Positions 1,829 through 46,100 of a stretch of DNA of 64,000 bases are shown here, piece after piece. The number at the start of each line of letters is the position of its first letter. Position 1 is the first letter of the stretch. The position numbers were made by a program, and so were the translations under genes. This DNA is from Sphyrna mokarran (Eukaryota). The notes under the pieces were generated by a model that was not told the origin of the DNA, did no database searches, and saw only the letters and a list, made by a program, of their open reading frames with translations. The DNA is taken from NCBI GenBank assembly GCA_024679065.1, contig JAGIQG010000006.1, positions 8,308,001 through 8,372,000 of the forward strand. The letters run 5' to 3'.

Positions 1829-1903
1829 TTATTTTTGAAAACTCTGTACATATTTGCTGGTGAACTCTTTATTTTGAACACTCTGTTTCTCTGAGTATCA
1901 TTA

Positions 1904-7250: not shown

Positions 7251-7254
7251 CACG

Positions 7255-9556: not shown

Positions 9557-9625
9557 CTTTCTCTTGTTGAGACCTTGTGAAGTTTATAACCGCGTAATCT
9601 AGATTATTTCCAGCTCCTTGCAAAT
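9557..9625 (-). CDS. Gene A cytoplasmic exon 3 (69 nt) with ITIM: (D)LQGAGNNLDYAVINFTRSQQEK
   Basis: Long polypyrimidine tract ...ttattcctttggtag| acceptor and |gtaagg donor; LDYAVI fits ITIM (S/I/V/L)xYxx(I/V/L). Confidence 0.88.
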
Positions 9626-15600: not shown

Positions 15601-18600
15601 CTCCCACACTTAAACCAAGGGTTTCGCTAATCTTGGCATGGATTGAATTAATCCGATTTTATCCATGGACGTTGACAGCCAAAGCAGCCAGGGAATGGAG
15701 GATAAAAGAGTCTCCTGAAGACTCACATGTTTCCCGCCGAGGAAATGACATCTCACCACAAGGTGGAAGATCCCCCACCTCTGCCCGTGTTGGTCACAGC
15801 AGCCAATCATTCAGTGTCTATTGACTCACTAGCTCTGTTTCCCCAAGATGTGGTCATTGGTACCAGGTTATTTTGTGTTTGTCTATAAAGGTTCACCTCC
15901 TATCTACAGCCCACTCGCTTGGAATTGACCTGATTTAACTTTTCACAGTGCAGAAGAGGGCATTCAGCCCTTAACAGCCACATGGACTTTTACCAGAATT
16001 AACGCAATACCCTCATATTTTACCCCTACCATTTTTGGGCGGCCAAAGGTTTCTTAAGTTCTGAATTTGATGGGAAAACTGTTGTAATTCAATGATTGAT
16101 TTTCACATTGCGAGTTTGACACTCGAATCTCCCACATTCTGTGCAAAGCAGCGTTCACAATCACGAATATCATTAAAAGTTTGGGGGGGTGGAGCCGATC
16201 CATGTAAAAGTCTGTCAGTTCTGGAACTCTGTGAAGGAGCAATGGCCCTGAGCTCTCAGCCTACAGTTTGCTGGCGGGCGATTGAGCTAACCAGCCTGGG
16301 GTCCTCACAGTGCTGCCCCTCCAGCCATCCGCCCACGGACTGATCGCGGACCCAACGAGAATTCATGGGCCAGCCTCGATCCTGTCATCATCCAAGAGTG
16401 CCGCAATCTCCACCCCCACCTACCCCCAGCAGTGACGATCCCTCTTTGGCAGATCCAGTCCCCTCGGGAGGCAGACCCCACTCAGCAGACATCCCACCTC
16501 CCAGGAGACCCCACTCCCAGCAGATTGCCCCACGGGAGGCAGACCCACCTGACAAAACACCCCTCTCCCCCTGGCTCGACCTGTTCACTGACCTCCCTCC
16601 AGCCCCAATCGATCACAACGCAGATTGGCAGTGGGATCCCCCCCATTCCCACCAATTGTCCCCTCGGCCCCACCCACTTGGCACAGCCCAGTAGGCCCTG
16701 CCCCTTGGCACTGCCGTGTGCCTGGTGGCAGTGTCAAGGTGTCCCCTGGGCATGGGCTCTTTGCCCCTTTGGCAGGTCCAGGTGACACAATCGGGAACTG
16801 TGATGATGCCCAAACCAGGGGGCAGCCCTCCCACCGTCCAACCCCCATGGGTCTCCAGCTACTTCCATGAAAGTGGGTGCTACTCTAAACCCCCCCGGAG
16901 TGAAGTTGTACTGGTGTTGGGAGTGGGGGGGAATGTTAGTGGGCTTGGAGAATTCAGTCCCAGGCCCCATTATCACATTTAATTAACATTAAAAATAGAT
17001 TTAAATCACTCACCTGCTGCTGCCTCTGGTTTCCATTGGGGTCCTGACTGCGCCAGATCTTCGGCGCTGGGTGATGTGTGTCTGTCAGGGACACACACGC
17101 AAATCCCGTGAATCGGTCACCAGTGATTCTCCCATCCCACCGGGCTAAAATTTAGGAAACTGGGGGGAAATTTAGCCTGGCCAATCCACCTAACCCATAA
17201 ATCTTTGGACTGTGGGAGGAAACCACACCAACACAGGAAGACCATCAAACTCCACAATGTATAAAATGATCAAAGCTGGAAATTGCCAGCACTGTGAGGC
17301 AGTAGTGCAAACCACTGTACCACCTGCTACAGAATGTTTTATCCACATCCCCATATCACAAACATTGATGTTTTCTTACCAACAACCTGGAGTCCCATCA
17401 CATCCTGAGTTACATTTTCCTGATTCCAGTTCCTGACGTGTACGTGACAGAAATAATCATTGGTGTCGTTCAGCTGCAGGTTCCTCATCCTGAGGGAAGC
17501 GTTTCCTTGGGTTGGGTTTCCAATCAGTTCATATCGATCTCCTTCATTCACAGTGACTGGGTCATTGTAGCCAGAACCAGCCCCCAGGGAATGAGAGTAA
17601 TTAAAAACAGTGGAAAATTTTTTTTGATCCCTCTTCATCCAGAGGACAGTGAGGGAGCTGAGAGAATGCTGAGGGGGATTGAAGGTGCAAGACAGAGTGA
17701 CAGAATCTCCCTTCACCCCAGTCACTGCCCGTGAATCGCTCTGACCTGAGGGAGTAAGGATTTGAAAGAACAGATATTAATTATCATGTAGTTTTATTAA
17801 ATGTAATCTCTACAATGTTTATCTCCCCTGTGATATCCCTAAAGACAGATAACACCGACCTAGATTTATACAAATACCTGGAAGTTAATGTTCCCTTCAG
17901 GAAATGAAGTTGGAAAAGTGCTGAGATCTTGGAGGGAAATTGCTCTGGAGGATGTGACGGCACTGAGATAGAAAAGGCCATGGAGGGATTTAAGGAGCAG
18001 GATGATGATGTTAAATAATGAGGAAATGGGTCTTGTTCCTCTGGAGAGGATTTCCTGCCGGGTCTGATGGACGATGTGATTGGTGGGATGAAAATGGATT
18101 GTGCTGGTGGCTTTTGGGACAGCATTGGGATAAAACCATGGATAAGTTATCTCAGCCTGCCCGTACTAGACAAAGACATACTCCCATTACTCTCAATATC
18201 TACAACTGTCCCCCTCATGGGATAGCATGGAGACACAGAGGTTAGCACTGCTGCCTCACAGTGTCAGGGATCTGGATTTGATTCCTGACTTGGGTTACTG
18301 TTTGTGTGGAGTTTGCACATTGTCTGTGTGGGTTTCCTCTGAGTGCTCCAAATTCTCCCACATTCTGGAAGATGTGCTGGTTAGGTGCATTGACCAGAAT
18401 AGGCTCCGGACTGTGGTGACTAGGGGAATTTCACAGTAACTTCATTTCAGTGTTAATGTAAGGCTTATTTGTGATTAATAAATGAACTTTAACTAAATTC
18501 ACAGCAGGCAGGACCCAGGCATTCACAAAGATGTAAATCTCAGTCTTGTACTTTCCCATTTCAAATCCATTTTACTCCAGAAAGCCAGTCTGTGAAGGAT

Positions 18601-21600
18601 GATCCTCAACCTCTTCTTAGTCTTATATTTAATTACCGAGTGAATAATTACAAACAAATATCTCCAAACACAATTGCACAGTTATAGAAATGTGTTTTGA
18701 AGATGTTCAGAAAAAACCTCTCCTTGCAGATCATTAAACACAACTCATATCCAAATAGCAAATTAAATCCTCTTTAAATCTCTCTGGTGTGTGGGCTAGG
18801 TCGGTTAGCCATGTTAAATTGTCCCTTAGTGTCTTAATCCAGTGGTGGGTTGGGGGCTTGTAACAAAGTCCAAAAAGCAAACACTTCCCATTTGGCTCAT
18901 GGGCTTCCCTGGGAATCCCTTCCATGGACATCTCTTCCATGGGGGTCCCACTCAGCACTGGATTGTGGGAACTGGGAAGCCTGCTGAGAGTTACCCCTTG
19001 TGTTTGTTGCTGACCTGCCGTCCCCACACCTTCTCTCCTGGGACTCCCCGTCCCGCAATCATTCACCTGTGCCTGGCTCCATTGGTTAACGTGGTATTTG
19101 AGTGGGTGTAGTAGCAGCAGCAACCACATCCCCCTCAGTGGCACCACTGAGCCATGAAGAGTATCTGCCCTCTGATTGGGACCTCACCCAGGGACTTGGT
19201 CTCAGGAAAGGCCCAGTGCTGCCCTGCTGAGTGCCTGATTACACTGAATGGTACAAGCCTTCCTAAATTAGGTGATACTGGTTCTCCAGTCAGCGGGTGA
19301 AATCACCATCACGTTAAATTCCGCCTAATAATTACCTGTTCTGGGTTTAAAATTAATCACTTATTTAACAAACGCATAACTCCTATTTGTACAATCCATC
19401 ACCAGTATCTACAAATGCCTCTACATGAGCTCAAATTATTATCCAATGTGTGCTTCTCCCCTTGTATCTCATTAACTTTTGTGAAATCCCCTGCGAGGTC
19501 CATGGGAAAGTATTGATTGATTTCCCTGTAGGACTCATTGAGTATGAGTTCCCCTGGTAACAGGCAGTTCCTGTCTATTCCTGAGGCTTGTATAAGGCAG
19601 GCCTTGGACTGGGCCTGCTGATCTGCAGTCCCTGGCAGGCCCTAGTAGTTTGGAGATGCCTGATTGGGGCTTCATTACACTCTGGATGTGCTGCATCTGC
19701 TGCTGCCAGACTGAGAGCTGAGAGTTACTGGAGAGGGAAGCTGCTGCTTGGACAGACAGAGAGAGGCCCCGGGGCCTGGAGGCTCACAGGTCTCACAGCC
19801 TGCAATGGAGAGAGGGAAACTGGGCAGGGCCTGAAAACTGCTCTGAGTGCAATTGGAGAATCCCAGCTCAGGATCAATATTAAATCAGTTTTACATTTCT
19901 ACACAATGTGAAACATGACAAGTCCAAATCCCTCCCTCTGAAATCCGCACACCAGATGTGTCAATGTGAGCCATTCAGTTATGTCCTCACTTTTACAGGG
20001 GAACCAGAGCTGAGTAATAAATCTAGTTTGATATCTAGTTTGCCCGGTACCACCCTGGTTTAAGGGCAATCCATTCCGCAGTGGCCCAGTGAATCATCAG
20101 TGATTCAGGAAGAAGATCGGTTCTTCCTGATCGGTTGAAGGAAATAAGGATTACGAGGATAGAGGTGTTGGGGCTGTTAGGCAGCTTAAAGACGTATAAA
20201 GCTCCAGGACCTGATGGCATTTACCCCAGGCTGCTAAGGGAGTTGAGGGAAGACTTGGCTGGGCCTCTAACGCAAATCTTTGTCTCTTCCTTGGACACAG
20301 GTGAGGTCCCAGAGGACTGGAGGATAGCAAACGTAGTACCGTTGTTTAAAAAAGGTCAGAGGGATCACCCAGGGAACTATAGGCCGGTGAGCTTGACTTC
20401 AGTTATAGGTAAGCTAATGGAGAGGATCCTTAGGGACAGGATGTATGAGCATCTGGAGTGCTGCGATCTGATCAGGGATACGCAGCATGGCTTCGTCAAG
20501 GGGAAGTCTTGTCTTACAAATGTAGTGGAATTTTTTGAAGAAGTGACAAAAACAGTTGATGAAGGACATGCTGTTGATGTCGTCTACATGGATTTCAGTA
20601 AGGCGTTCGACAAGGTTCCTCATGGTAGACTGAGAGAAGGTGAAGGCGCATGGGATACAGGGCCAGGTATGTAGATGGGTCGAGAACTGGCTCGGGAGGA
20701 GGAGACAGAGGGTAGTAGTGGAAGGCTCTTTTTCCGGCTGGAAGCCTGTCACTAGTAGAGTGCCACAAGGCTCAGTACTAGGTCCTCTTCTATTTGTGGT
20801 CTACATAAATGACTTGGAAGTTGGGGTAGGTGGTGAGATCAGCAAATTTGCTGATGACACCAAGATGCTTGGATTGGCGGGTACAGAAGAGCAGTGTCAG
20901 GCAATACAACAGGAATTAGACAGGTTGGTAGACTGGGCAGATAGATGGCAAATGGAATTTAATCCGGATAAATGCGAGGTGATGCATTTTGGCCGGAAAA
21001 ATGTAGAAGAGAGTTATAGGATAAAAGGTAAAACTATACGGAGCATAGAGACGCAGAGAGACTTGGGGTGCAGGTTCACAAGTCTCTGAAGGTGTCCTCA
21101 CAGGTGGAGAAGGTGATAAAGAAGGCGTATAGTATGTTAGCTTTCATAGAAAAGGGGATAGAATACAAGAGTAGGAGTTTGATGTTGCAGTTGTATAGAA
21201 CTTTGGTTAGGCCTCACTTGGAATACTGCGCCCAGTTCTGGTCTCCATACTATCGGAAGGATGTGGAGTCCTGGGAGAGAGTGCAGAGGAGGTTTACCAG
21301 GATGCTGCCTGGTATGGAAGGACTGGCTTATGAGGAACGATTAGATAGACTGGGGTTGTTTTCCCTTGAAAGACGTCGGCTTAGAGGGGATCTCATAGAG
21401 GTGTATAAGATTATAAGGGGTATAGATAGAGTAAATGGAGGTAAATTTTTTCCACCTTCAGAAATGGATAGGACGAGGGGTCATGGCCATAGGGTGAGGG
21501 GGGCTATGTATAAGACGAATATTAGAGGGCAGTTTTTCACACAAAGGGTAGTGGGGGTGTGGAATGCACTGCCGAGTAAGGTGGTGGGAGCAGGCACGCT

Positions 21601-24600
21601 GGGGCTGTTTAAGGGCCTCTTGGACAGCCACATGAGCAGTATGCAGATAGAGGGATATATTAGGACTGTTTAACTACGGCTTTTTTTCCACAGGTAATTC
21701 GGCCCATACTTGACCAACATTGAGCATGCATTCGGCAGGTGGTGCGGGTACAGCTCTTGGATGTTGATTCATGGGTTGCCTGGTACCTCATGTCGTAAAT
21801 GCGTGCTTTATGTGGACCATCTGAAGGGCACCATGACAGCTCAGAGACTATCGATGTGGCTGTGCAGACACTTGGAATTGGGCCGGTGTCTGCGGGAGTT
21901 TGCGCGTTCTCCCCGTGGTTGCGTGGGTTTCTCCGGGCACTCCGGTTTCCTCCCACAACCCAAAAATTCGCTCTTAGGCTGATTGGGTAACAAATTGTCC
22001 CTATAGTGAGAATTTTCCATATTAGGAATAATATATATATTATTATATAGGAATAATAAAATAGGATAATGGATTTGCTACTATATAGTTATGACGGCGG
22101 CGCGGGCTCGTTGGGCCGAAGGGCCTGTTTCCCGTGCTGTGTTGCTCTTTAAAAAAAAAAAGATGTCCCATAAATTTCCTGGGATGGACGATAAGAATAT
22201 AGAACATAGAACATAGAACATTACAGCCCAGAACAGGCCCTTCGGCCTTCGATGTTGCGCCGACCAATTATGAACAAAAAAGCAATGACCCTCCAAACTA
22301 AATCATTCCCTTCTCTTCCATAAACTTATCAACTAACCTCTTAAACGCCACCAAACTTGGCGCATCTACAACTGCCGCAGGCAAGGCATTCCACTCCCTA
22401 ACCACCCTCTGGGTAAAGAGTCTACCTCTGATATAACTATCAGCATTGCTCACAAACCAAGAGTAAACTCTTTATCATCAAAACCCGACAGCACAAAAGG
22501 AGGGCATTCAGCCCATCGAGTCTGCACTGACCACAATCCCATCTGTCCCTGTAACCCCACACATTTACTCCACTAATCCCTCTAATTTACACATCCCGGG
22601 ACACTAAGACACAATTTAACATGGCCAATGCACCTCTGTAGCACATCTTTAAAACATTTGTGCTTGTGTTTGGATTAAATTTACATACAGTCTTATATCG
22701 AATTTGAAATATTCCTCACCTCTCATTATGAGATCTCCATGCTCCAATTGATAAGCTGCTCCGTTACCATCGAGCTCCATGCGACAGAAATATTTATGTC
22801 TTGTGTCCTCTTTATTCAGCTGTTTGATGATGATTGAAGCTTCGTTCTTCCTCGGGTTTCCCAGCGCTTGGTAACGATTATTAATATTCAGGATGACCAG
22901 ATTCTGAAACTGTCTGCCCGGTGCGTTTTGTGTTGGATAATTTGTATAATTAAATACCGCTTCCTTTCCTCTGAACCATTTAACCGTGATGTTGCCATTA
23001 TATCCCGAGTGAGGGTGAGTGAACTTGCAGAACAGAACAGTAGCTTTTCCTTCCCTACCCGTCACCTTCTCCGGTGTCTCCATGCTCCAGCCATTGTTAC
23101 TGAGAACTGGAAAACACAAAATGCTGTTTAAACACCGAACTGAGATGGGAGCTGTTACGGGACTCTGTCGGAAGCTTTCTTGTTCTACTCCCCTCAACTA
23201 ACCAAACAAAGTGACGGAGTGATTTGAAGATGAACTTTACAATAGCTATCGGCCCCTGAATATCCATTCAGAGTAAAGAATTCAGAGATATAAAGGCAAT
23301 TAAAATCTCAGCTATGATTACAAATAATTAACATACACCAATAACAGAATATGAGTTATCTCCATCCAATCACAGTTAATACTTCATGTAACATCATATA
23401 AAATGTAATATTTAAAACCAATCACAATCATCTTACACTTGCTTAATTATAATATCCAACAGTGGTGAGCTTTTTACTGCCTGATTTGAGTATTATTCTC
23501 CCCTATCTTTACACACTTAGACTGTGTCTACACACTCCAACATCGGTCCTTGTCCAGTGCATGATGTAAAAGACTTCTCCCAGCACAGTATCTTTCTCCC
23601 TTCTTTACCTGAAGGTCAAACTAGTTTCTTGTAATAACCACCTTGTAATTACACATTGTGTAAGCTTTGTGATTTGTCCATGTTAATCCTTTCACTGAAC
23701 ACAGTTATTCATGTGCTGATTATTTTCCTCCATAATTATTAATATGGGTATTGATCCGCCTCAAGAGGCAATGGTTCCAACCCTTCAGGATTGGCCAAGA
23801 GTCTCCAGCCTAAGAAATTATGTACTTGCCACAGAGGAACATAGAACATAGAACATAGAACATAGAACATTACAGCACAGTACAGGCCTTTCGGCCCTCG
23901 ATGTTGCGCCGGCCAGTGGACCCTCTAACCTAAACTATTCCAGTATCATCCATATGCCTATCCACCGAACATTTGAATGCCCCCAAAGTAGGTGAGTCCA
24001 CAACTGCTGCAGGCAGGGCATTCCACGCCCTCACCACCCTCTGTGTAAAGGACCTGCCTCTGACATCCGTCCTATAACTACCACCTCTTAATTTAAAGTT
24101 ATGTCTCCTCGTGTTGGTCATCACCATCCGAGGAAGAAGGCTCTCACTATCCACCCTATCCAGTCAGTGAAGTGCAGTGAAGGTTCACCAGACCGATTCC
24201 TGGGCAGGCAGGATTGATGTATGAGGAGAGATTGGGGGGACAATTCACTGGAGTTTAGAAGAATGAGAGAGAATCTAACTGAAATTTTTAAATTCTAATT
24301 GAGCTGGACAGACTGGATGAGGGATAATCTTTGCCCTAGCTGGTGTCTGGAACAAAGGGTCACATTCTCAGGATGTAGGGCAGGCCATTTGTTTTATTCA
24401 TTCATGGGAAATGGCTTTCAATGGAATAACATTTCAGAGGAATGTTAGGAGTCCCATCAGTATGGATCTGGAGTCACATGTAGGTCAGGCTCGGGTAATG
24501 AGGTCAGATTTCCTTCCCTAAAGGACATGAGTGAATCCAATGGGTTTGTTTATGACAACCAACATGGTCATCGTTAGAGATTTAAATCCAGATTTTTATT

Positions 24601-27494
24601 GAAAAGGGTGAAACTTGTAAATGTTGATGTTCAGGGGACTTGGGAGTGCTCAGGATGGGAACACAGAAAGTTAGTATACAGGTCCACCAGCAATTAGGAA
24701 GGAAACTGACATGTTAGTCTTTACTGTAAGAGGATTGGGGTAGCAGAATAACAAAGTCTTGCAACAATGGGTGGGATTGCATCTAGAATATTTACAATTG
24801 TATTTTCCATATTTAGGAAGGATAAACTTATATAGGAGGCAGTAGCGTGAATGTTCACTAAATTTTTCCCTGGGTTGAGATTGTTGTGCTGTGGTATATA
24901 GAACATAGAGACTGAATAAACCAGCTCACTATTCTCTGGAGTTTTAAAGAGTAACAGGTTACCTCATCAATTGCTAGAAGATTGTGAAAGACGTTGAAAG
25001 GGTGAACGCTGAGAGATTGTTTCCCCTGACTGGGGGATTATTGTCTCACAGCGCCAGCAACCAAGGTTCAATTCTGGCCTCGGGTCACTGTCTGTGTGGA
25101 AGCTGTATGTTCTTCCCATGTCAGTGTGGATTTCCTCTGGGTGCTCCGGTTTTCTCCCACAATCCAAAGATGTGCAGGTTAGGTTGATTGGCCATAATAA
25201 ATTGCCTCTTAGTGTCAGGGAAAAAATACAGGATAAATGAAGGTTACGGAGATAGAACCTGAGTGGGATTGTGGTCAGTACAGACTTGATGGGCTGAATG
25301 GTCTCCTTCGGTACGTACGGATTCTATGATTCAACAAGGATAAAGGGCTGACTATTTTGGACAGAGATGAGGAGAAATTTGTTCGCTAAAGTGTCGTGAT
25401 TCTATGGGAATCTTTATGCCAGAGGGTTATAACTGCTCCTGAGCTGAATAAAGTTAACTCTTGGATAGATAGATTTTTGGTCCCTCGGGGATTAAGAAGA
25501 TTATTTCTTTTATTTATTATGTCACAAGCAGGCTTACATTAACACAACAATGAAGTAACTGAATTACTGTGAAAATCCCTAATCGCCACACTCCGGCGCA
25601 TTTTTGGGCACAATGAGGGAGAATTTAGCTAATGCACCTAATTAGCACATCTTCTACACTGAGGGACAATTTAGCATGGCTAATGCACCTAGCCAGCACG
25701 TCTTCAGACTGTGGGAGGAAACCGGAGCACCACAGACACAGGGAAAGTGTGCAGACTGTGCACATACAGTGACCCAAGCTGGGAATCAAACCCAGGTTGT
25801 TGGTGCTGTGAGGCAGCAGTGCTAACCACTGTGCCATCATATTACCCCATGGAAGTGTGTACTGCAGTCTAACTAGAGTGTGAAACAGTTTGTAATGTCA
25901 CTACCTGATAAGAAATAAGCCGGGGAAAGCCATTCAGCCCTTCAAGCCTGCTCCACCATTCATTAAGATCATGGCTGATCTGATTGTGCTCTTAACTTCA
26001 TTTTCCTGCCTGTTCCCACACCTTTGACTTGTAGGTTAAAAATCTGAATAAGCCTTGGCTACATTCAATGATTCAGCATCCACTGCTGTCTGGGGAGGTG
26101 AATTCTACAAACAAATGACCCTCGGAGAGAAGAAGTTCCTGCGCATCTCCATCTTAAACTGGAGACCCTTATTCTGAAACTCTGGCCCCTCATTCAAGAT
26201 GTGGGAAAAAACTTCCTCTCAGCATCTATAAGTCAGGCTCACACAGATTCTAATATGTTTCAAGAAGATCATCTTTCAATCTTCTAAACCCCAAAGTTAT
26301 CGACACAATCTGTTCGACCTTTCCCCAAAAGACCAACTGCTGAACCCCAGAATCAGCCCAGTGAATCTTTCTGGCACTTTCTTTGCGTCTGGAGTCACAT
26401 GTAGGCCAGGCTGGGTAAGGATGGCAGATTTCCTTCTCTAAAGGATATGAGTGAATCAGATGGGTTTTTACGTTAATTGATCTAGTCATCACTTGAGTTT
26501 TATTTCCAGATTTTTATTTAAAAAGGGTGCAACTTGTAAATGTTGATGTTCATGGACTTGGGGGTGCTCACATTGGGAACACAGAAAGTTAGTGTAAGAC
26601 CCACAAGCATTTCCTTTATTCATCAGAGACCAAAGTCTCTGACAGTGCGAGGGTAACTTCTCTCTTTCCATACTCTATATATCGACTAATAACACGAAAG
26701 TTTCCCATATACCTTCGCAATGATCTTATACCCCGGGCGATCTGATTTATCCTCTCATTGTAGTATCTTATGTTTGAGGGTTTTCATTTACTGCATTGTA
26801 AAATGTTCTTATTTGCAAAGGAAGCTAAAGCAAATACACAAATCTAACAACACTCATCCTTAACAATTCTTCTGACAGAACAGCCCCTGATCCAACATCA
26901 GTATAAAATTCAGCACAATATACAGTAAGATATTTAGTGTGAAAGCATTATATTCAGTGTCATATTGAGTATAATATTCAGCAATTGTCCATGTGTATTC
27001 TATATAATATTCAGAATACAATTCAATATACATTCAGGAACTGTAAAGTCATAATCGGCCACATGACCAGAGGCTGCTCTACCCTTTGAGTGGGAGAGCA
27101 GCCTGGTGATGATTTAACCTGAGGATCATTACATCTCAGCTGAGGGGCAAGGTTGAGAAGGCAGCGCCTTCATGAATAACCCCCGCGGGTACAGGAATTG
27201 AACCCACACTGTTGGCATAACTCACCAGATGGCCATCCAACTGAGCTGAACCAACCCACAGTAGCTTTGTTGGTATAATATTCCATATAATATGAAGTTT
27301 TATATTCAGCATAATATTCCATATAACACTGACAAGTCACTGTCCCTTCTCACTTGCGGTGAGCCAGTTTTTTTTGACACTCTAAATTATTTTACTGAAA
27401 TAGTATAGCAGAGGGAAAATGAGTTCATTCTTTAAAAATACATACATTTTGCTGAGCTGGTCAGTGTGAGTGTACACAGCACGATCCACAGCAT
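9557..27494 (-). CDS. Gene A: Siglec-15-like inhibitory Ig receptor (leader-V1-V2-C2/TM-tail x3), multi-exon, 3' end likely incomplete
   Basis: Exons 27494-27446, 23106-22720, 17745-17380, 15021-14647, 12117-12049, 10907-10839, 9625-9557 all have AG/GT boundaries, all phase 1, and join into one open frame of ~461 aa. Confidence 0.88.
10839..10907 (-). CDS. Gene A cytoplasmic exon 2 (69 nt): (D)PQGVGEIPVYSAIGPASQQAET, YxxI motif
   Basis: tttctgtatctttgacag| acceptor, |gtatag donor, phase 1-1; paralogous to 12049-12117. Confidence 0.78.
11190..11540 (+). mobile_element. Old SINE of a second family with a LINE-derived tail (related fragments at ~24450-24600, 26385-26520 and their duplicates)
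   Basis: aaaacccatctggtt...gaaggaaatctg...ctggtctacatgtgactccaga core recurs in the window; tail caagggcaactagggatgggcaacaaatgc shared with LINE 3' ends at ~10390-10420 and ~27740-27790. Confidence 0.65.
11722..11990 (-). mobile_element. HE1/V-SINE-type SINE
   Basis: ggactgtgggaa...gaggaaacccacgcagaca core and CR1-like 3' tail (atagaat)n. Confidence 0.82.
12049..12117 (-). CDS. Gene A cytoplasmic exon 1 (69 nt): (D)PRGVGGIPVNSAVNPASQQAET, Tyr replaced by Asn
   Basis: tttccatatctttgacag| acceptor, |gtatag donor, phase 1-1. Confidence 0.78.
12815..13072 (+). mobile_element. HE1/V-SINE-type SINE
   Basis: tRNA-like head gtggcacaacggttagcactgctgcctcacagcgccagggacctgggttcaattcc; tail ttctatgattc. 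Confidence 0.82.
13405..13708 (-). mobile_element. HE1/V-SINE-type SINE with alternative 3' tail
   Basis: tRNA head at 13650-13705, V core, tail ...gtgacactaataaataaacttt; same type at ~18230-18490 (+) and ~25505-25840 (-) and their duplicates. Confidence 0.82.
14647..15021 (-). CDS. Gene A C2-set Ig plus transmembrane exon (uncharged TM YIVPPLFIISFLLFGFVIWVL, then KR)
   Basis: IVC...ITW...GTYNC Ig motifs; acceptor ttttcctttcccaag| (alternative cag| at 15015), donor |gtgagc; 375 nt. Confidence 0.92.
16215..17165. repeat. GC-rich interspersed element in the V2-C2 intron, unclassified (copies at ~39965-40915 and 63615-64000)
   Basis: C-rich, low-complexity sequence producing spurious Pro/Gly ORFs; present in all three gene copies. 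Confidence 0.5.
17380..17745 (-). CDS. Gene A second V-set Ig exon (V2; YFCHVH, no essential Arg)
   Basis: VTLSCTF...VLW...GNASLRMRNLQLNDTNDYFC; tccttactccctcag| and |gtaaga; 366 nt. Confidence 0.92.
20114..22160 (+). mobile_element. CR1 LINE insertion specific to unit 1 (intron V1-V2 of gene A), with V-SINE core in its 3' UTR
   Basis: RT ORFs 20135-20674, 20640-21089, 21068-21673; empty site caggaagatgtccc at 43860-43873 in unit 2; short aaga target duplication and A-tract 3' end. Confidence 0.94.
22720..23106 (-). CDS. Gene A N-terminal V-set Ig exon (V1), Siglec-15-like, essential Arg in YFCRME
   Basis: WSM..P..V, VLFCKFTHPH..YNG, LGNPRKN, YFCRME, Y...HG match motifs recalled from the Siglec-15 V domain; tttgtgttttccag| and |gtgagg; 387 nt. 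Confidence 0.92.
23838..24163 (-). mobile_element. CR1 3' fragment (duplicate at ~45538-45850)
   Basis: TRRHNFKLRGGSYRTDVRGRSFTQRVV; (ATAGAAC)n tail is longer in unit 1. Confidence 0.88.
25045..25332 (+). mobile_element. HE1/V-SINE-type SINE (duplicate ~46732-47020)
   Basis: ctcacagcgcc...ggttcaattc head, V core, attctatgattc tail. Confidence 0.8.
27060..27260 (-). mobile_element. tRNA-derived SINE of a third family (related copy ~31235-31420; duplicates in unit 2)
   Basis: Minus-strand head agctcagttgg...ggttcaattcc (A/B boxes); core gatttaacctgagg..cacctcag..gagggg shared between copies. Confidence 0.7.
27446..27494 (-). CDS. Gene A signal-peptide exon MLWIVLCTLTLTSSAK
   Basis: ATG with purine at -3, hydrophobic core, 49 nt, |gtatgt donor, phase 1 in frame with V1. 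Confidence 0.88.
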
Positions 27495-27559
27495 TCTCTT
27501 CACTCCTGCAGTACACAGAGCTCTCTGAAGGCTCAGCACCCACTCGACGGGTCTAATAT

Positions 27560-27666
27560 CATTGCTCACTATCTGATCTTGTTGCTTCCTTCAGTAAACT
27601 TGGTGTTAAACAAAAATACTGCTGAAATTTTGCAAGAATGCTGACCAGTTTAAAACGGGGAAGTGC
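27560..27666 (-). promoter_or_regulatory. Putative TATA-less myeloid-type promoter of gene A (PU.1/Ets, C/EBP-like, GATA motifs)
   Basis: GGGGAAGTG at 27657-27665, TTGCAAAA (- strand) ~27628-27635, GGAAG ~27585-27589, AGATAG ~27569-27574; motif matches only. Confidence 0.35.
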
Positions 27667-27704
27667 ATTCTAAGATGAATTCAAAAACTGGATTCGAAAT
27701 TTGT

Positions 27705-29720
27705 TCTTTCACAGGATGTGGGTGGTGGTCATTGCTGGCTAGGTTAGCATCAATTTCCCATGTATAATTGCCTTTCCAATGTGTTCATGAGCTGCCTTCT
27801 TGAAACGCTGCAGTCCAGGTGGTGCAGGTACACCCACAGTGCAGTTAGGAAAGGAGTTCCGGGATTTTGACCCAGCAACAGTGAGTGAACAGTGACATAT
27901 TTCCAAGTTAGGTTGAGTGTAGTTGGGAGGGGAACTTGTAGAGAGTGGGTGTTCCCATGGCTTCCCTTGGCCATCTAAGTGGAGGGGTTGTGGGTTCGGA
28001 AAATACGCTCGAAGGAGTTTTGGTGAGTTGCTGCAATGCCTTGTGGAAATGGTACACATGGCTAACAGTGTGCGTCAGCAGTGGGGACAGTCAATAGTTA
28101 AAGTGATGGATGGGATGTCAGTTAATTGGGCTGCTTTGTCCTGGATGAAGTCAGGCTTCTTGAGTGTTGTTAGAGTTGCACTCATCCCAGAAAATGGAGA
28201 GTATCTCATTACATTCCTGACTTGTGCTTTATCGATGGTGGAACAAAAGAACAAAGAATATTACAGCACAGGAACAGGCCCTTCGGCCCACCAAGCCTGT
28301 ACTGACCATGCTGCCCGACTGAACTAAAACCCACTGCGCTTCCAGGGAACATATCCCTCTATTCCCATCTCATTCATGTACTTGTCCAGATGCACCCTAA
28401 AAGTCACTAAGTTATCCCCTTTCACGATCTCCCCTGGCAATGACTTCCAGGCATTCACCATTCTCTCTGTCAAAAATCTGCCTTGTACATGACTTTTAAA
28501 ATTTGCCCATCCCACCTTAAACCTGTGCCCCTTTGTAACTGACTCTTCCACACTGGGAAAAAGCTTCTGACTATCCACTCTGTCCATGACTCTCATAATC
28601 TTGGAGACTCCTATCAGGTCTCCCCTCAACTTCCATCGCACCAGTGAGAACAAACCAAGTTTCTCCAACTTCTCTTATAGCAAATGCCCTCCATACCAGG
28701 TGATATCTGGTAAATCTTTTCTGTACCCTCTCCAAAGCCTCCACATCCTTCTGGTAATGTGACGACCAGAATTGAACACTATATTCCAAGTGCAGTCTCA
28801 CTAAGGTACTACAAAGTGTCCACATGACTTGCCAATTTTTGAACTCAATACCCTGGCCGATGAAGGCAAGCATGCCGTATGCCTCCTTGGAACGGTTCCA
28901 AGGAGTCAGGAGGTGAGTGACTCACAGCAGAATTCCCAGTCTCCAACCTGCTTTGTAACCACAGTCTTTATGTGGTTAGTCCAGTTCAATTTCTGGTCAA
29001 TGGTAAGACTCAGGGTGTTGATAGTGGGGGATTGAGAAATGCTAATGCAGCTGAATGTCAAGGGGAGATGGTCGGATTCCCCTGATTCCCAGTTTGTAAG
29101 GGCTGCCTCGTGCCATACTCGATCCAATGCTGCCTTGATGTGAAGGACAGTTAATCTCACCTCATCATTTCAGCTCAGCTCTTTTGTCCATGTTTGAACA
29201 AAGGCTGTAATGAGGTCAGGAGCTGAGTGACTTTGGCAGAACACAAACTGGGCCTCACTGAGCAGGTTATTGCTGAGCAGGTGCTGCTTGATAGCGCTGT
29301 CGATGACCCCTTCCATCACTTTTCTGATGATCGAGAGTAGATTGATTGAGCAGTAATTGGCCAAGTTGGATTTGTCCTGCTTTTTGTGCACAGGTTATAT
29401 CTGGGCAATTTTCCACATTGCTGGGTAGTTGTCAGTGTTGTAGCTGTATTGGAACAGTTTGACGAGGGGAGTGGAAAGTTTTAGAGCACAAGTTTTCAGA
29501 ACTACTATCAGAATGATATCAGGGTCCATTGCCTTTGCAGTATCCAGTGCCTTCAGCCATTTCCTGTTATCACCTGGAGTGAATCCAACTGGCTGGAGAC
29601 TGGCACCTTTGATGCTGGTGATAATTGGATGTTCTGGCTGAAGACTGTGGTGAATCCTTCAGCCTAATCTTCTGTATTGATACACTGGGCTCCTCCATCA
29701 CTGAGCATAGGGATATTTGT
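27705..29720 (-). mobile_element. Degenerate LINE of a second CR1/L2-like family with a nested CR1 at ~28243-28889 (duplicate ~49390-51410)
   Basis: KKQDKSNLANYCSINLLSIIRKVME...QFVFCQSHSAPDL and TIDQKLNWTNHI RT fragments; nested HER1-type 3' fragment with (acaaaga)n tail. Confidence 0.82.
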
Positions 29721-32069: not shown

Positions 32070-34310
32070 GAAGGAGCACAGTCTCCTGCAGCAACAAGCA
32101 GTGACACCCAGGGAACACCCAGCGCCAGGAGACCGATGGGCCTGCAGGGCCAGAGGCCACAGCAGCCGAACAGAGGGCTCGCAGTCAAGGATGGAAACCG
32201 AGGTCACGGGTACACTTTATATGGGAGCATTGGACTGCGTTCATTTCAACTGGAGCAGGCGCAGCAGGATGGAGGGCTGCTGAAGTCCTCACAAAGCTAT
32301 CTGCCACGTGTCACTCTACACGCTCCTCACCATCAGGGAGCCCCCTTCATCAACACGAAAGTGTTCCATTCCAGCTGATGTGTGACCACCAGATGAAGAG
32401 GTTCATACACGTGTGTGCACATTTTCCAGGGAGTGTGAATAACAGCTACATCCTTGGCCAATCACAAATCCCTGGAATTTCTGAGGGTCACTCAAGCTGC
32501 AATGATGCCTCGTTGGGGATAAGGGATACCGCTGAGATCTTATCTGATGATGCCAGTGCAGAGGCCTGAGATTGAAGCAGAGGCCCACTACAGCGAGGGT
32601 ACTGTGCCACTCAGTCTGTGATAGAACAGGGCGTTACCCTCCTCAATATGTGCTTCTGCTGCCTCGACAGATTCGATAGAGAACTGCAATACAATCCCCT
32701 GAGGATCTCTCAGATCATGGCGGTTGCTAGTACCTTATGTGTACCTTTTACACATTTAACTAGTTGCAATATTGGGGTGTTTCCTAGGCTGCTGTTCAGT
32801 TTCAGTTTCTGCCTGCACAGAGAGCAGCTTTTCAATAAATCTGTTGTGTGTTACTCTGAATCTACACATGCCAAACACATCTTTTCTTTGTGTTTAAAAC
32901 CTATACCCCTTAACAGAGTTAGGACATTACAATTGCTTGGCACTGCACTGGATCAACAACCTTACTGATGATGACCTTGAGTTTTTTGTAGGGGTAACCA
33001 AGAAAGTAAATAGAGGCAGTGCATTTGATGTTGTCTACATGGACTTTAGCAAGGCTTATGACAAGATACCGCATGGTAGGTTGTTGCATAAAGTTAAATC
33101 TCACAGCATCCAAAGTGAGGTAGCCAATTGGATACAAAATTTGTTTGATGACAGAAGACAGAGGGTGGTTGTAAAGGATTGTTTTTCAAACTGGAGACCT
33201 GTGATCATCGGAATCAGTGCTGGATCTACTGTTATTTGTTATTTATATTAATGATTTGGATGAGAATATAGGAGGCATGGTTAGTAAGTTTGCAGATGAC
33301 ACCAAGATTAGTTGAATTGTGGAAGTGAAGAAAGTTATCTTGGATTGCAATGGGATGTTGATTAATTGGGCCAGTGAGCTGATGAATGGCAGATGGAGGT
33401 TAATTTAGATAAATGTGAGGTACTTGGTCGATCGAATGGGGCAGGACCTATTCTGTTAATGGGGAGAGTTACAGAACAAAGAGATCTCGGAGTTCAGGTT
33501 CATAACTCATTGAAAGTGGAATCACAGGTGGACAGAGAGGTGAAGAAGGCATTCAGCATGCTTGGTTTCATCGGTCAGAAAATTGAATACAGGAGCTGGG
33601 ATGGAAGTTGTACAGGACATTGGTAAGGCCATGCTTGGAATACTGTGTACAGTTCTGGTTATCCTACTTTTGAAGGAATATTGTTAAACTAGACAGAGTG
33701 CTGAAAAGATTCACTAGGATGCTTGCGGGACTTGGTCGTTTGAGTTACAAGGAAAGGCTGAATGGACAGGGGCATCTTTTCCTGGAGATTGAAAGTTGAG
33801 GATGATCTTATATAGAGGTCTATAAAATAATGAGGGACACAGCTCGATAATCAAAACTTTCTCCTCAAAGGTAGGGTAGTCTAAAACTAGAGGGCGTAGG
33901 TTTAAGGTGAGAGGGGAGAGATACAAAAGGATCCAGAGGGGCAATATTTTCACACAGAGGCTGCTGAGTGTCTGCAACAAACTATCAGAGGTAGTAGTAA
34001 AGGTGGGTACAACTTTGTCTTTTCAAAAGCAGTTAGACAGTTATATGGGTAAGATGGGTATGGAAGGATATGGGCTGAATGTGGGCAATTGGGACCAGCT
34101 AAATTGAAGAACTGGGTGGCATAGACAAGTTGGGCCGAAGGGCCTGTTTTCATGCTGTAAATCTCTATGAGCGTTATTTCCTCAGATGGGCAGTCGAGGA
34201 GGGATTGGAGGAAGAGGCCGGAGAGGAGTTGGAGGACGGAGGACAGATAGGGTCAAGGGTTTTCATGGACAGAAGGACTGATGTTCCCTCATTGCTTCCC
34301 ACTTTACTCT
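32070..34310 (+). mobile_element. PIF/Harbinger DDE transposase (HARBI1-like) remnant, interrupted by a CR1 at ~32960-34170
   Basis: FINTKVFHS / CDHQ..FIHVCAHFPGSVNNSYIL / LGDKGY / IEQGVTLLNMCFCCLDR..ELQYNP match Harbinger nuclease motifs; acidic C-terminus resumes after the CR1. Confidence 0.82.
32960..34170 (+). mobile_element. Degenerate 5'-truncated CR1 (duplicate ~54650-55720)
   Basis: [26 protein letters not shown], 3' stem ttgggccgaagggcctg. Confidence 0.88.
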
Positions 34311-36824: not shown

Positions 36825-37199
36825 CTACCGTCAACATCCAGATACTAAAACAAATTATAAAATATAAGATCAGTAAAAGAACCCGCACAACATAGGAAAC
36901 AAAAATGGACATGTCCTTGTCTTCAGCGATGAGGTGGATCTGACGGACGTCTCTCCCGAGTTCAGTTACAGCTACACAGCTGTATGTCCCTCTCAGTAGT
37001 GGGTTACGAAACTCTCCTGTGATTTGATACTTGTCTGGCTCTTGTGTGACTGTTGTGTCAGGGCTGTTCCCGGGCACTGAGCTGCCCACAGGATTGATCC
37101 ATGTGATATTGGCAGGTGGCCCCGCTTTAACCTGGCACACGATGCTCTCTCCAATTATTTTATTGGTCACTAACGACAGATTCAAGATGGTGGCTGGGA
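36825..37199 (-). CDS. Gene B C2-set plus TM exon (SYVVRVLLLILYFIICFSIWMLTV)
   Basis: Within ORF 36784-37440; donor |gtaagt; Arg codon CGG at 36883-36885. Confidence 0.92.
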
Positions 37200-40100: not shown

Positions 40101-43100
40101 TCCAACGAGAATTCATGGGCCAGCCTCGATCCTGTCATCATCCAAGAGTGCCGCAATCTCCACCCCCACCTACCCCCCGCAGTGACGATCCCTCTTTGGC
40201 AGATCCAGTCCCCTCGGGAGGCAGACCCCACTCAGCAGACATCCCACCTCCCAGGAGACCCCACTCCCAGCAGATTGCCCCACGGGAGGCAGACCCACCT
40301 GACAAAACACCCCTCTCCCCCTGGCTCGACCTGTTCACTGACCTCCCTCCAGCCCCAATCGATCACAACGCAGATTGGCAGTGGGATCCCCCCCATTCCC
40401 ACCAATTGTCCCCTCGGCCCCACCCACTTGGCACAGCCCAGTAGGCCCTGCCCCTTGGCACTGCCGTGTGCCTGGTGGCAGTGTCAAGGTGTCCCCTGGG
40501 CATGGGCTCTTTGCCCCTTTGGCAGGTCCAGGTGACACAATCTGGAACTGTGATGATGCCCAAACCAGGGGGCAGCCCACTCACCATCCGACCCCCATGG
40601 GTCTCCAGCTACTTCCCTGAAAGTGGGTGCTACTCTAAACCCCCCTGGAGTGAAGTTGTACTGGTGATGGGAGTGGGGGGGAATGTTAGTGGGCTTGGAG
40701 AATTCAGTCCCAGGCCCCATTATCACATTTAATTAACATTAAAAATAGATTTAAATCACTCACCTGCTGCTGCCACTGGTTTCCAGTGGGGTCCTGACTG
40801 CGCCAGATCTTTGGCGCTGGGTGATGTGTGTCTGTCGGGGACACACACGCAAATCCCGTGAATCGGTCACCAGCGATTCTCCCATCCCACTGGGCTAAAA
40901 AATTAGGAAACTGGGGGGAAATTTAGCCTGGCCAATCCACCTAACCCATAAATCTTTGGACCGTGGGAGGAAACCACACCAACACAGGAAGACCATCAAA
41001 CTCCACAATGTATAAAATGATCCAAGCTGGAAATTGCCGGCACTGTGAGGCAGTAGTGCAAACCACTGTACCACCTGCTACAGAATGTTTTATCCACATC
41101 CCCATATCACAAACATTGATGTTTTCTTACCAACAACCTGGAGTCCCATCACATCCTGAGTTACATTTTCCTGATTCCTGTTCCTGACGTGTACGTGACA
41201 GAAATAATCATCGGTGTCTTTCAGCTGCAGGTTCCTCATCCTGAGGGAAGCGTTTCCTTGGGTTGGGTTTCCAATCAGTTCATATCGATCTCCTTCATTC
41301 ACAGTGACTGGGTCATTGTAGCCAGAACCAGCCCCCAGGGAACGAGTGTAACTAAAAACAGTGGAAAATTTTTTTTGATGCCTCTTCATCCAGAGGACAG
41401 TGAGGGAGCTGAGAGAATGCTGAGGGGGATTGAAGGTGCAAGACAGAGTGACAGAATCTCCCTTCACCCCAGTCACTGCCCGTGAATCATTCTGACCTGA
41501 GGGAAGGAGGATTTGAAAGAACAGACATTAATTATCATGTAGTTTTATTAAATGTAATCTCTACAATGTTTATCTCCCCTGCGATATCCCTGAAGACAGA
41601 TAACAGCGACCTAGATTTATACAAATACCTGGAAGTTAATGTTCCCTTAAGGAAATGAAGTTGGAAAAGTGCTGAGATCTTGGAGGGAAATTGCTTTGGA
41701 GGATGTGACAGCACTGAGATAGAAAAGGCCATGGAGGGATTTAAGGAGCAGGATGATGATGTTAAATAATGAGGAAATGGATCTTGTTCCTTTGGAGAGG
41801 ATTTCCTGCCGGGTCTGATGGACGATGTGATTGGTGGGATGAAAATGGATTGTGCTGGTGGGTTTTGGGACAGCATTGGGATAAAACCATGGATAAGTTA
41901 TCTCAGCCTGCCCGTACTAGACAAAGACATACTCCCATTACTCTCAATATCTACAACTGTCCCCCTCATGGGATAGCATGGAGACACAGAGGTTAGCACT
42001 GCTGCCTCACAGTGTCAGGGATCTGGATTTGATTCCTGACTTGGGTTACTGTTTGTGTGGAGTTTGCACATTGTCTGTGTGGGTTTCCTCTGAGTGCTCC
42101 GAACTCTCCCACATTCTGGAAGATGTGCTGGTTAGGTGCATTGACCTGAATAGGCTCCGTATTGTGGTGACTAGGGGAATTTCACAGTAACTTCATTTCA
42201 GTGTTAATGTAAGGCTTATTTGTGATTAATAAATGAACTTTAACTAAATTCACAGCAGGCAGGACCCAGGCATTCACAAAGATGTAAATCTCAGTCTTGT
42301 ACTTTCCCATTTCAAATCCATTTTACTCCAGAAAGCCAGTCTGTGAAGGATGATCCTCAACCTCTTCTTAGTCTTATATTTAATTACCGAGTGAATAATT
42401 ACAAACAAATATCTCCAAACACAATTGCACAGTTATAGAAATGTGTTTTGAAGATGTTCAGAAAAAACCTCTCCTTGCAGATCATTAAACACAACTCATA
42501 TCCAAATAGCAAATTAAATCCTCTTTAAATCTCTCTGGTGTGTGGGCTAGGTCGGTTAGCCATGTTAAATTGTCCCTTAGTGTCTTAATCCAGTGGTGGG
42601 TTGGGGGCTTGTAACAAAGTCCAAAAAGCAAACACTTCCCATTTGGCTCATGGGCTTCCCTGGGGATCCCTTCCATGGACATCTCTTCCATGGGGGTCCC
42701 ACTCAGCACTGGATTGTGGGAACTGGGAAGCCTGCTGAGAGTTACCCCTTGTGTTTGTTGCTGACCTGCCGTCCCCACACCTTCTCTCCTGGGACTCCCC
42801 GTCCCGCAATCACTCACCTGTGCCTGGCTCCATTGGTTAACGTGGTATTTGAGTGGGTGTAGTAGCAGCAGCAACCACATCCCCCTCAGTGGCACCACTG
42901 AGCCATGAAGAGTATCTGCCCTCTGATTGGGACCTCACCCAGGGACTTGGTCTCAGGAAAGGCCCAGTGCTGCCCTGCTGAGTGCCTGATTACACTGAAT
43001 GGTACAAGCCTTCCTAAATTAGGTGGTACTCGTTCTCCAGTCAGCGGGTGAAATCACCATCATGTTAAATTCCACCTAATAATTACCTGTTCTGGGTTTA

Positions 43101-46100
43101 AGATTAATCACTTATTTAACAAACGCATAACTCCTATTTGTACAATCCATCACCAGTATCTACAAATGCCTCTACATGAGCTCAAATTATTATCCAATGT
43201 GTGCTTCCCCCCTTGTATCTCATTAACTTTTGTGATAACCCCTGCGAGGTCCATGGGAAAGCATTGATTGACCTCTCTGTAGGACTCATTGAGTATGAGT
43301 TCCCTGGTAACAGGCAGTTCCTGTCTATTCCTGAGGCTTGTATAAGGCAGGCCTTGGACTGGGCCTGCTGATCTGCAGTCCCTGGCAGGCCCTAGTAGTT
43401 TGGAGATGCCTGATTGGGGCTTCATTACACTCTGGATTTGCTGTATCTGCTGCTGCCAGACTGAGAGCTGAGAGTTACTGGAGAGGGAAGCTGCTGCTTG
43501 GAGAGAGAGAGAGAGAGAGGCCCCAGGGCCTGGAGGCTCACAGGCCTCACAGCCTGCAATGGAGAGAGGGAAACTGGGCAGGGCCTGAAAACTGCTCTGA
43601 GTGCAATGGGAGAATCCCAGCTCAGGATCAATATTAAATCAGTTTTACATTTCTACACAATGTGAAACATGACAAGTCCAAATCCCTCCCTCTGAAATCC
43701 GCACACCAGATGTGTCAATGTGAGCCACTCAGTTATGTCCTCACTTTTACAGGAAAACCAGAGCTGAATAATAAATCTAGTTTGATATCTAGTTTGCCCG
43801 GTACCACCCTGGTTTAAGGGCAATCCATTCCGCAGTGGCCCAGTGAATCATCAGTGATTCAGGAAGATGTCCCATAAATTTCCTGGGACGGACAATAAGA
43901 ACACAGAACATAGAACATTACAGCGCAGAACAGGCCCTTCGGCCTTCGATGTTGCGCCGACCAATTATGAAAAAAAATGCAATGACCCTCCAAACTAAAC
44001 CATTCCCTTCTCTTCCATAAACTTATCAACTAACCTCTTAAACGCCACCAAACTTGGCGCATCTACAACTGCCGCAAGCAGGGCATTCCACTCCCTAACC
44101 ACCCTCTGGGTAAAGAATCTACCTCTCATATAACTATCAGCATTGCTCACAAACCAAGAGTAAACTCTTTATCATCAAAACCCTACAGCACAAAAGGAGG
44201 GCATTCAGCCCATCGAGTCTGCACTGACCACAATCCCATCTGTCCCTGTAACCCCACACATTTACTCCACTAATCCCTCTAATTTACACATCCCGGGACA
44301 CTAAGACACAATTTAACATGGCCAATGCACCTCTGTAGCACATCTTTAAAACATTTGTGCTTGTGTTTGGATTAAATTTACATACAGTCTTATATCGAAT
44401 TTGAAATATTCTTCACCTCTCATTATGAGATCTCCATGCTCCAATTGATAAGCTGCTCCTTTTTTACCATCGAGCTCCATGCGACAGAAATATTTATTTC
44501 TTGTGTCCTCTTTATCCAGCTGTTTGATGATGATTGAAGCTTCGTTCTTCCTCGGGTTTCCCAGCGCTTGGTAACGATTATTAATATTCAGGATGACCAG
44601 ATTCTTAAACTGTCTGCCCGGTGCGTTTTGTGTTGGATAATTTGTATAATTAAATATCGCTTCCTTTCCTCTGAACCATTTAACCGTGATGTTGCCATTA
44701 TATCCCGAGTGAGGGTGAGTGAACTTGCAGAACAGAACAGTAGCTTTTCCTTCCCTACCCGTCACCTTCTCCGGTGTCTCCATGCTCCAGCCATTGTTAC
44801 TGAGAACTGGAAAACACAAAATGCTGTTTAAACACCTAACTGAGATGGGAGCTGTTACGGGACTCTGACGGAAGCTTTCTTGTTCTATTCCCCTCAAGTA
44901 ACCAAACAAAGTGACGGAGTGATTTGAAGATGAACTTTACAATAGCTATCGGCCCCTGAATATCCATTCAGAGTAAAGAATTCAGAGATATAAAGGCAAT
45001 TAAAATCTCAGCTATGATTACAAATAATTAACATACACCAATAACAGAATATGAGTTATCTCCATCCAATCACAGTTAATAGTTCATGTAACATCATATA
45101 AAATGTAATATTTAAAACCAATCACAATCACCTTACACTTGCTTAATTATAATATCCAATAGCGGTGAGCTTTTTACTGCCTGATTTGAGTATTATTCTC
45201 CCCTATCTTTACACACTTAGACTGTGTCTACACACTCCAACACCGGTCCTTGTCCAGTGCATGATGTAAAAGACTTCTCCCAGCACAGTATCTTTCTCCC
45301 TTCTTTACCTGAAGGTCAAACTAGTTTCTTGTAATAACCACCTTGTAATTACACATTGTGTAAGCTTTGTGATTTGTCCATGTTAATCCTTTCACTGAAC
45401 ACAGTTATTCATGTGCCGATTATTTTCCTCCATAATTATTAATATGGGTATTGATCCGCCTCAAGAGGCAATGGTTCCAACCCTTCAGGATTGGCCAAGA
45501 GTCTCCAGCCTAAGAAATTATGTACTTGCCACAGAGGAACATAGAACATAGAACATTACAGCACAGTACAGGCCTTTCGGCCCTCGATGTTGCGCCGGCC
45601 AGTGGACCCTCTAACCTAAACTATTCCAGTATCATCCATATGCCTATCCACCGAACATTTGAATGCCCCCAAAGTAGGCGAGTCCACAACTGCTGCAGGC
45701 AGGGCATTCCACGCCCTCACCACCCTCTGTGTAAAGGACCTGCCTCTGACATCCGTCCTATAACTACCACCTCTTAATTTAAAGTTATGTCTCCTCGTGT
45801 TGGTCATCACCATCCGAGGAAGAAGGCTCTCACTATCCACCCTATCCAGTCAGTGAAGTGCAGTGAAGGTTCACCAGACCGATTCCTGGGCAGGCAGGAT
45901 TGATGTATGAGGAGAGATTGGGGGGACAATTCACTGGAGTTTAGAAGAATGAGAGAGAATCTAACTGAAATTTTTAAATTCTAATTGAGCTGGACAGACT
46001 GGATGAGGGATAATCTTTGCCCTAGCTGGTGTCTGGAACAAAGGGTCACATTCTCAGGATGTAGGGCAGGCCATTTGTTTTATTCATTCATGGGAAATGG

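Follow-up and report, generated by a model that had tools for sequence, protein, structure and literature searches.

A 64,000-nucleotide stretch of the Sphyrna mokarran genome (GenBank assembly GCA_024679065.1, contig JAGIQG010000006.1, forward-strand positions 8,308,001 to 8,372,000; hereafter the window, with positions counted from its first letter) carries two adjacent genes, A and B, which by their sequences are tandem Siglec-15-like receptors of cartilaginous fish, each with two V-set immunoglobulin (Ig) domains, V1 and V2, ahead of a C2-type domain. Every codon that differs between the V exons of the two genes changes the amino acid. The signal in this pattern is a borderline shortage of silent changes and not a surplus of replacements; the protein-level constraint on the V exons is weak, which we regard as a firm conclusion, and the differences are too few to prove selection for diversity. 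The explanation that we favor, with somewhat better than even confidence, is that A and B are a paired inhibitory and activating set that was homogenised and has since diverged more or less neutrally under weak constraint, the deficit of silent changes being largely due to chance.

By self-comparison, the window contains a tandem repeat with a unit length of about 22-24 kb; on the minus strand lie genes A and B, complete from the leader to the exon for the C2 domain and transmembrane (TM) segment, and the 3′ end of a third gene, C. A and B lie head-to-tail on one strand, and each consists of a leader, V1, V2 and C2/I-set plus TM exon, with phase-1 splice sites throughout. The limits of the V1 and V2 exons were confirmed in both genes (AG/GT ends, phase 1), reading frames are open and splice sites intact; a search of the window for further V exons found them in A and B only, with no third V sequence. 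The preliminary description of this DNA had reported 9 base differences in 8 codons of V2, all replacements, and 4 replacements plus a change from N to KK in V1, with no codon differing silently only, and these counts are exact: all 13 differing codons are replacements. From A to B they are S2N, D39H, N48S, S50T, H51R, N92K, N95D and W106R in V2, and V50I, Q67K, N97D, H103N and N114K, the last with a 3-base in-frame indel, in V1. Since the S2N codon (AGC/AAT) holds one synonymous step by either path, the differences counted by base are 13 nonsynonymous and 1 synonymous. Altogether V1 and V2 differ at 14 of 753 bases (1.9%; 5 of 387 in V1, 9 of 366 in V2), and the amino-acid identity is 96% for V1 and 93% for V2. 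Adjacent double differences are frequent in the A/B comparison, with 18 seen against 5.8 expected.

The same description had set the exons against a nearby stretch of intron said to differ at only a handful of sites. The intron count itself holds, with 7 differences in 901 bases, but that stretch sits at the low end of the distribution: the median non-coding window of this size has 17 differences, and 12.6% have 7 or fewer. In all the non-coding DNA common to A and B between 16140 and 33897, 292 of 14767 sites differ (1.98%), a neutral rate that excludes 15640-16139, beyond the breakpoint discussed below, and drops alignment columns within 3 of a gap. Closer to the exons, the 500 bases on each side of V2 differ at 25 of 994 sites (2.5%), equal to V2, and those flanking V1 at 19 of 1000 (1.9%), above V1 itself. 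What emerges from the exon-intron comparison is therefore not a low intron beside a high exon; the two rates are equal (1.9% and 1.98%). Replacements accumulate at 1.14-1.20 times the non-coding rate (95% confidence interval 0.6-2.0), with no excess over that rate (13 seen, 10.9-11.4 expected, P = 0.30-0.36).

The departure from expectation is on the silent side, where 1 change is seen against 3.2-4.4 expected. The probability of at most one silent change among 14 is 0.067-0.136, varying with the mutation model. By base count, a ratio of nonsynonymous to synonymous rates (dN/dS) above 1 is not significant (Fisher one-sided P = 0.08-0.13), and the silent deficit is not significant in either exon alone (V1, P = 0.18; V2, P = 0.25). 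Within the exons, dN/dS values of 0.3 (P = 0.0002), 0.5 (P = 0.004) and 0.7 (P = 0.019) are all rejected. The proposal of diversifying selection with which this DNA was first described survives only in part: the usual constraint is absent, as the rejection of dN/dS at or below 0.5 attests, but a ratio above 1 is unproven and replacements do not exceed the non-coding rate.

Where the changes fall was judged against 25 V1-like and 42 V2-like homologous domains, with matches of 70 residues or fewer and duplicates dropped. The changed columns have a mean entropy of 1.94, against a neutral 1.44 ± 0.24 (P = 0.019), and the A/B exchanges are more conservative than neutral ones (P = 0.029). From variable columns and conservative exchanges together it follows that some filtering remains and that a subset of sites may run fast, although the excess at variable sites, 1.4-1.6 fold, is not significant (P = 0.12-0.21). 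The same pattern argues against a plain pseudogene and so bears on the possibility that B (or A) is a dead copy drifting neutrally, or that two haplotypes were assembled in tandem. A dN/dS near 1 is what a pseudogene would give, gene C carries a frameshift, and gene B is without recognisable tail exons. Set against these, A and B both have uninterrupted reading frames, sound splice sites and the same leader sequence, their conservative changes are placed at variable columns, and their 3′ halves are 16% different and encode distinct TM types, each of which is also represented in other species; moreover, the family is multi-copy elsewhere. We consider this explanation very improbable. Nor is the high ratio special to the V domains, since the ratio of nonsynonymous to synonymous differences per site (pN/pS) is of the same order in the rest of the ectodomain and beyond: 1.18 for the C2 domain of A and B (0.78 for B and C, 0.43 for A and C), and 1.02 for the A-B comparison of the stalk and TM part. 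Counting against the emphasis once placed on ligand-facing domains are the 8 of the 13 changes that lie in V2, which has a histidine in place of the sialic-acid arginine, and a C2 ratio that is equally high.

The history of the pair is also more complex than divergence "after duplication", as it was originally put. Identity between A and B is about 98% over the stretch reaching from the upstream flank to the end of V2, and falls to about 84% past it. In blocks, their mismatch is 1.9-2.6% over the upstream flank, leader, V1 and V2, and 16.5% around the C2-TM exon, while B and C mismatch at 3.6-8.3% over the 3′ blocks common to both. Within the V2-C2 intron the informative sites turn from A-unique to C-unique at about 16165. 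Hence the likeness of the 5′ parts is younger than the divergence of the 3′ parts, and a long conversion or an unequal crossover, in whichever direction it may have run, made the 5′ parts alike and reset the clock. The signalling types in the V2 tree (rows shorter than 95 residues dropped, which removed 3 of 44; in the V1 tree, 0 of 27) group by lineage: Heptranchias lysine-TM (Lys-type) and ITIM-type (immunoreceptor tyrosine-based inhibitory motif) domains join at 100/99, and A and B of the window join a Mustelus Lys-type domain at 100/100; a Pristis pair, at 92/87, is below the star threshold. The V1 tree unites 10 Lys-type domains across sharks and rays (93/96, unstarred). As judged from the domain trees, ectodomain exchange is recurrent in the family.

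Recurrent exchange opens the way to another explanation, in which most of the V differences are of older date, having arisen between paralogues and been copied in as short conversion patches from gene C or from a lysine-TM Siglec-15 gene outside the window. The non-coding divergence is indeed patchy, ranging from 0.4 to 5.8% per 500 bp with a variance-to-mean ratio of about 3 (the peak of 5.8% is at 28160-28659, just upstream of the leader, and other 500-base bins have 0.4%). Residues S48, T50, R51 and D95 of gene B are common to the Mustelus Lys-type V2, the V2 tree shows exchange between types, and in C2 codons 9-15 of gene B (37150-37180) seven B-specific base changes, all replacements, are packed into 21 bases. 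This last motif resembles the sawfish arginine-TM relative P0037 and may mark a conversion boundary. Imported patches should, however, have brought silent differences with them, and none flank codons 48-51 or 92-95; nor is a donor present in the window. Imported patches seem an improbable source of the pattern; if they were its source, the pairwise ratio would be a poor guide to selection after the exchange between A and B.

Evidence that A and B are a signalling pair comes from their 3′ ends. Three 69-base phase-1 exons follow A, homologous to the cytoplasmic tails of Heptranchias and Heterodontus proteins and including the motifs VYSAI and LDYAVI, and by these motifs A is predicted to be an ITIM-type "off" receptor. 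No copies of these exons were found in the window after B or C, no convincing ITIM exon of B or C was present there apart from chance motifs in repeats, and no terminal tail exon of A was found in 1-9556. Positions 1-9000 are nearly all stacked long interspersed nuclear element (LINE) fragments, and the last exon of A may lie before the window start. The regions of the first two tail exons (12002-12138 and 10792-10928) are 89% identical duplicates, flanks included, of which only the second has the tyrosine; the Heptranchias tails repeat the same unit. Gene B carries a TM arginine six residues before YF, the spacing found in five skate and sawfish relatives. An early TM arginine points to association with FcR-gamma, and in LILRA, PIR-A, NKp46, GPVI and OSCAR the arginine lies near the TM start. 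All of these couple to FcR-gamma (PMC2413239), and B resembles them in its predicted short tail and the basic residue in its membrane segment; it differs in that the ectodomains are unrelated and that its adaptor binding is putative. B most likely signals "on" through an adaptor of FcR-gamma type bearing an immunoreceptor tyrosine-based activation motif (ITAM), bound at this arginine.

The favored explanation can now be put together. If both are expressed, A and B would work as paired receptors within a tandem cluster derived from Siglec-15, A signalling "off" through its ITIM-type tyrosines and B "on" through its adaptor. Their 5′ 16 kb would have become near-identical by conversion or unequal crossover, the exchange ending on one side in the V2-C2 intron near 16165, and the divergence of the ectodomain exons would since then have roughly kept pace with that of the non-coding DNA. 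With the Ig core preserved, replacements would be accepted at variable sites, most of them on the surface, giving a dN/dS near 1. The near-absence of silent changes would be mainly a matter of chance with small numbers, added to weak constraint; short patches from other paralogues, and selection at a handful of sites, the V1 F-G loop among them, may have contributed to it. We prefer this account on the strength of the equal exon and non-coding divergence, the rejection of dN/dS at or below 0.5, the C2 and TM ratios of about 1, and the presence of ITIM exons after A only. Several results weigh against it. By simulation, the probability that 14 neutral changes leave no purely silent codon is 0.013, or 0.014 when AGC/AAT is taken as one double mutation; since the codon statistic was chosen post hoc, the signal of a silent deficit is borderline. 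Because the changes avoid conserved columns and are conservative, some sites should exceed 1 if the average is near 1. At the 3′ end, a strong GT donor follows the TM segment of gene B, so that an unrecognised tail exon is possible, and the Scyliorhinus A-type model P0038 reads through its post-TM donor, so that short annotated tails can be artefacts; the true 3′ end of gene B is for these reasons uncertain. Finally, gene C has glutamine, not arginine, at the TM position.

The chief competitor has diversifying, pathogen-driven selection on the V domains as the main cause: the inhibitory A would change so as to evade a microbe that attaches to it, the activating B being brought back into line from time to time by conversion. 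The codon-level probability just given speaks for it, as does a like pattern in the Xenopus CEACAM pairs (PMC5112662). When the changes are mapped onto strand limits from two predicted models, 9 of 13 fall in the C-C′-C″ and F-G segments, where 49% would be expected; this enrichment of the binding face is not significant (P = 0.125), and the other 4 lie in the modelled E-F loops or just beside them, away from that face. The N114/KK change in the V1 F-G loop adjoins the residue matching Siglec-15 V150, a sialic-acid contact (PMC10264397); the longer loop of gene B matches Siglec-15 and most homologues. Three of the 8 V2 changes add or remove an N-glycan sequon (N48 and N92 in A, N2 in B), and asparagine is involved in 7 of the 13 changes against 2.1 expected (P = 0.0025, post hoc). 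By eye, some 7 changes look derived in A, 2 in B and 4 cannot be placed, an asymmetry that is not significant (hand binomial P = 0.18). Against selection for diversity stand the lack of a replacement excess over the non-coding rate, the C2 and TM ratios equal to those of V, and the location of most changes in V2, which is not the canonical Siglec binding domain. We hold it to be possible, though unlikely. The four explanations are not fully exclusive.

The positions of the exons and other features are collected in Table 1. The LINE-like element in gene A has a 90% identical copy at 7303-9399, downstream of A and in the same orientation. The one-base deletion in the C2-TM exon of gene C lies within a GG pair and is either a frameshift or an assembly error; in the C2 domain the branch leading to C has 5 silent and 2 replacement changes, and that leading to B has 1 and 9.

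Table 1. Genes A, B and C and associated features in the window.
Feature	Position	Strand	Remarks
Gene A leader (signal peptide) exon, coding part	27446..27494	-	ATG, hydrophobic run, phase-1 GT donor; resembles P0004/P0007 N-termini
Gene A V1 exon, Siglec-15-like V-set with Trp6, Arg108, Tyr118	22720..23106	-	best PDB sequence and fold match 7zoz
Gene A V2 exon, second V-set, His at Siglec Arg position	17380..17745	-	
Gene A C2/I-set and uncharged TM exon	14647..15021	-	
First cytoplasmic exon of gene A (69 bp, phase 1)	12049..12117	-	matches Heptranchias P0009/P0014 and Heterodontus P0030 tails
Second cytoplasmic exon of gene A (69 bp), with tyrosine motif VYSAI	10839..10907	-	matches P0014 tail, E=6e-5
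Third cytoplasmic exon of gene A (69 bp), with LDYAVI, an ITIM-type motif	9557..9625	-	
Gene B leader exon, coding part	49134..49182	-	identical to gene A leader
Gene B V1 exon, one codon longer in F-G loop	44417..44806	-	
Gene B V2 exon	41131..41496	-	
Gene B C2/I-set and TM exon, Arg near TM start	36825..37199	-	13-residue tail if donor read through
Gene C C2 and TM exon, B-like TM, Gln replacing Arg, one-base frameshift	61463..61836	-	V exons beyond window end
LINE-like insertion of ~2 kb in gene A V1-V2 intron, not in B	20114..22159	+	gap between A/B blocks, reverse transcriptase-like open reading frame pieces by eye, A-tail, short duplicated target
Segment of A matching B 39900-55580 at ~98% identity, with upstream flank, leader, V1 and V2	16165..33897	.	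homogenised tract

The affinity to Siglec-15 rests mainly on V1. Its best match among solved structures is human Siglec-15 (7zoz) by sequence (E=2.8e-18) and by fold as well, though the predicted model is modest (mean predicted local distance difference test, pLDDT, 68). Arg108 aligns with the arginine after the cysteine in 7zoz, Siglec-8 and others, so that the essential F-strand Siglec arginine is present; Trp6 and Tyr118 align with the A-strand W44 and G-strand Y154 of Siglec-15, and the equivalents of its C64-C142 are also found. A Siglec is defined by a single V-set followed by C2-set domains, and the order here is V-V-C2/I, with a second V-set between V1 and the C2-like domain. V2 carries histidine, not arginine, at the position of the Siglec arginine and taken alone is ambiguous, CD276 and Siglec-15 scoring alike per domain. 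In Siglec-15, W44, R143 and Y154 contact sialic acid and a second V-set disulfide joins C95 and C104 (PMC10264397). V1 of A and B has two cysteines only and no counterpart of that disulfide; any binding of sialylated glycans by V1 would be expected through Arg108. Siglec-15 proper signals through a TM lysine for DAP10/DAP12 (PMC7226832); no TM lysine is found in A, B or C, which are therefore paralogues and not its orthologue, and the Lys-TM relatives of sharks and rays are better candidates for Siglec-15 proper. The ITIM-type tail of A and the multi-copy cluster are further differences from Siglec-15. An NKp30/B7-type identity, suggested by the F-strand motif, was rejected for V1, whose best PDB matches are Siglecs; the HMMER pairing of V50 with Siglec-15 Y87 was not used, as the model places V50 in the C′ strand.

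All 38 homologues found are from sharks, rays, a chimaera or a lungfish, the nearest for V2 being from Mustelus (84%). Among the 37 examined, 14 combine a Lys-TM with a short tail (all chondrichthyan proteins), 6 an uncharged TM with an ITIM, 5 have an Arg-TM (skate and sawfish), and 12 have another or no clear TM. A search for Arg-TM relatives in sharks with the C2-TM exon of gene B yielded 2 proteins from 303 candidates, neither of Arg type. Rhinoraja has 8 family entries. In the V1 alignment the essential Siglec arginine is leucine in 9 of 10 chondrichthyan Lys-TM proteins, Mustelus keeping the arginine; it is also present in the lungfish domains and in the majority of ITIM-type and other paralogues. 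Six ray, skate and lungfish models (P0008, P0010, P0011, P0013, P0020 and P0029) have repeated V domains, the lungfish P0029 having three that are V1-like, and some of these may be fused gene models.

The arrangement recalls known paired receptors. The paired-Siglec model is described in reviews (PMC6288428, PMC13358205), the first of which also lists a SIGLEC14-SIGLEC5 fusion allele. As is proposed for A and B, SIGLEC11/16 and SIGLEC5/14 are linked inhibitory and activating genes made near-identical in their 5′ parts by conversion and less alike in their 3′ parts. In primate SIGLEC11/16, identity over the converted 5′ region is 97-99%, and the nonsynonymous rate does not differ from the neutral one on most branches, which was taken as relaxed constraint (PMC5701461). 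Those pairs are CD33-related, use the DAP12 adaptor and have conversions of about 2 kb, whereas the shark genes are of the Siglec-15 lineage, share a tract of about 16 kb and have a putative activating TM segment with arginine. In the Xenopus CEACAM pairs, V-type exons are converted and show virtually no synonymous differences, with replacements clustered on the CC′C″FG face; conversion there is confined to the exon, the introns are diverged and the genes lie in opposite orientation (PMC5112662). The introns of the shark pair, in contrast, are as alike as the exons, the genes are head-to-tail, and the clustering is not significant.

Titles and abstract openings in the literature on Siglecs and Siglec-15 in sharks, cartilaginous fish and fish contained no description of this cluster, supplements and most subscription journals being outside that scope, and within it no Siglec with an Arg-TM of FcR-gamma type was found described. 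The whale shark genome paper names Siglecs once, in a list. In earlier work, Siglec-15 figures as a conserved activating receptor, and the inhibitory CD33-related Siglecs are reported to be absent from fish, a statement that concerns teleosts (PMC7226832). A broader picture, which we offer as tentative and rather doubtful, is that in cartilaginous fishes the Siglec-15 lineage gave rise to a separate, fast-evolving system of paired Siglecs, independent of the mammalian CD33-related ones. In each lineage, ectodomain exons would be exchanged among the Lys-TM, ITIM-tail and Arg-TM types; the sialic-acid arginine would have been largely lost from the Lys-TM form and retained by the paired ones; and A and B would be a pair caught in the course of pathogen-driven divergence at the F-G loop of V1 and the glycan sequons of V2. 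The all-replacement pattern is weak and of a known kind, and hence matters little alone. Of greater interest is the Siglec-15-derived paired cluster itself, with its three signalling types. If tandem inhibitory and activating Siglec-15-like genes are indeed kept alike by exchange, the paired-Siglec design would have arisen twice, and the cluster would be a place to test relaxed constraint against pathogen-driven selection in paired receptors.

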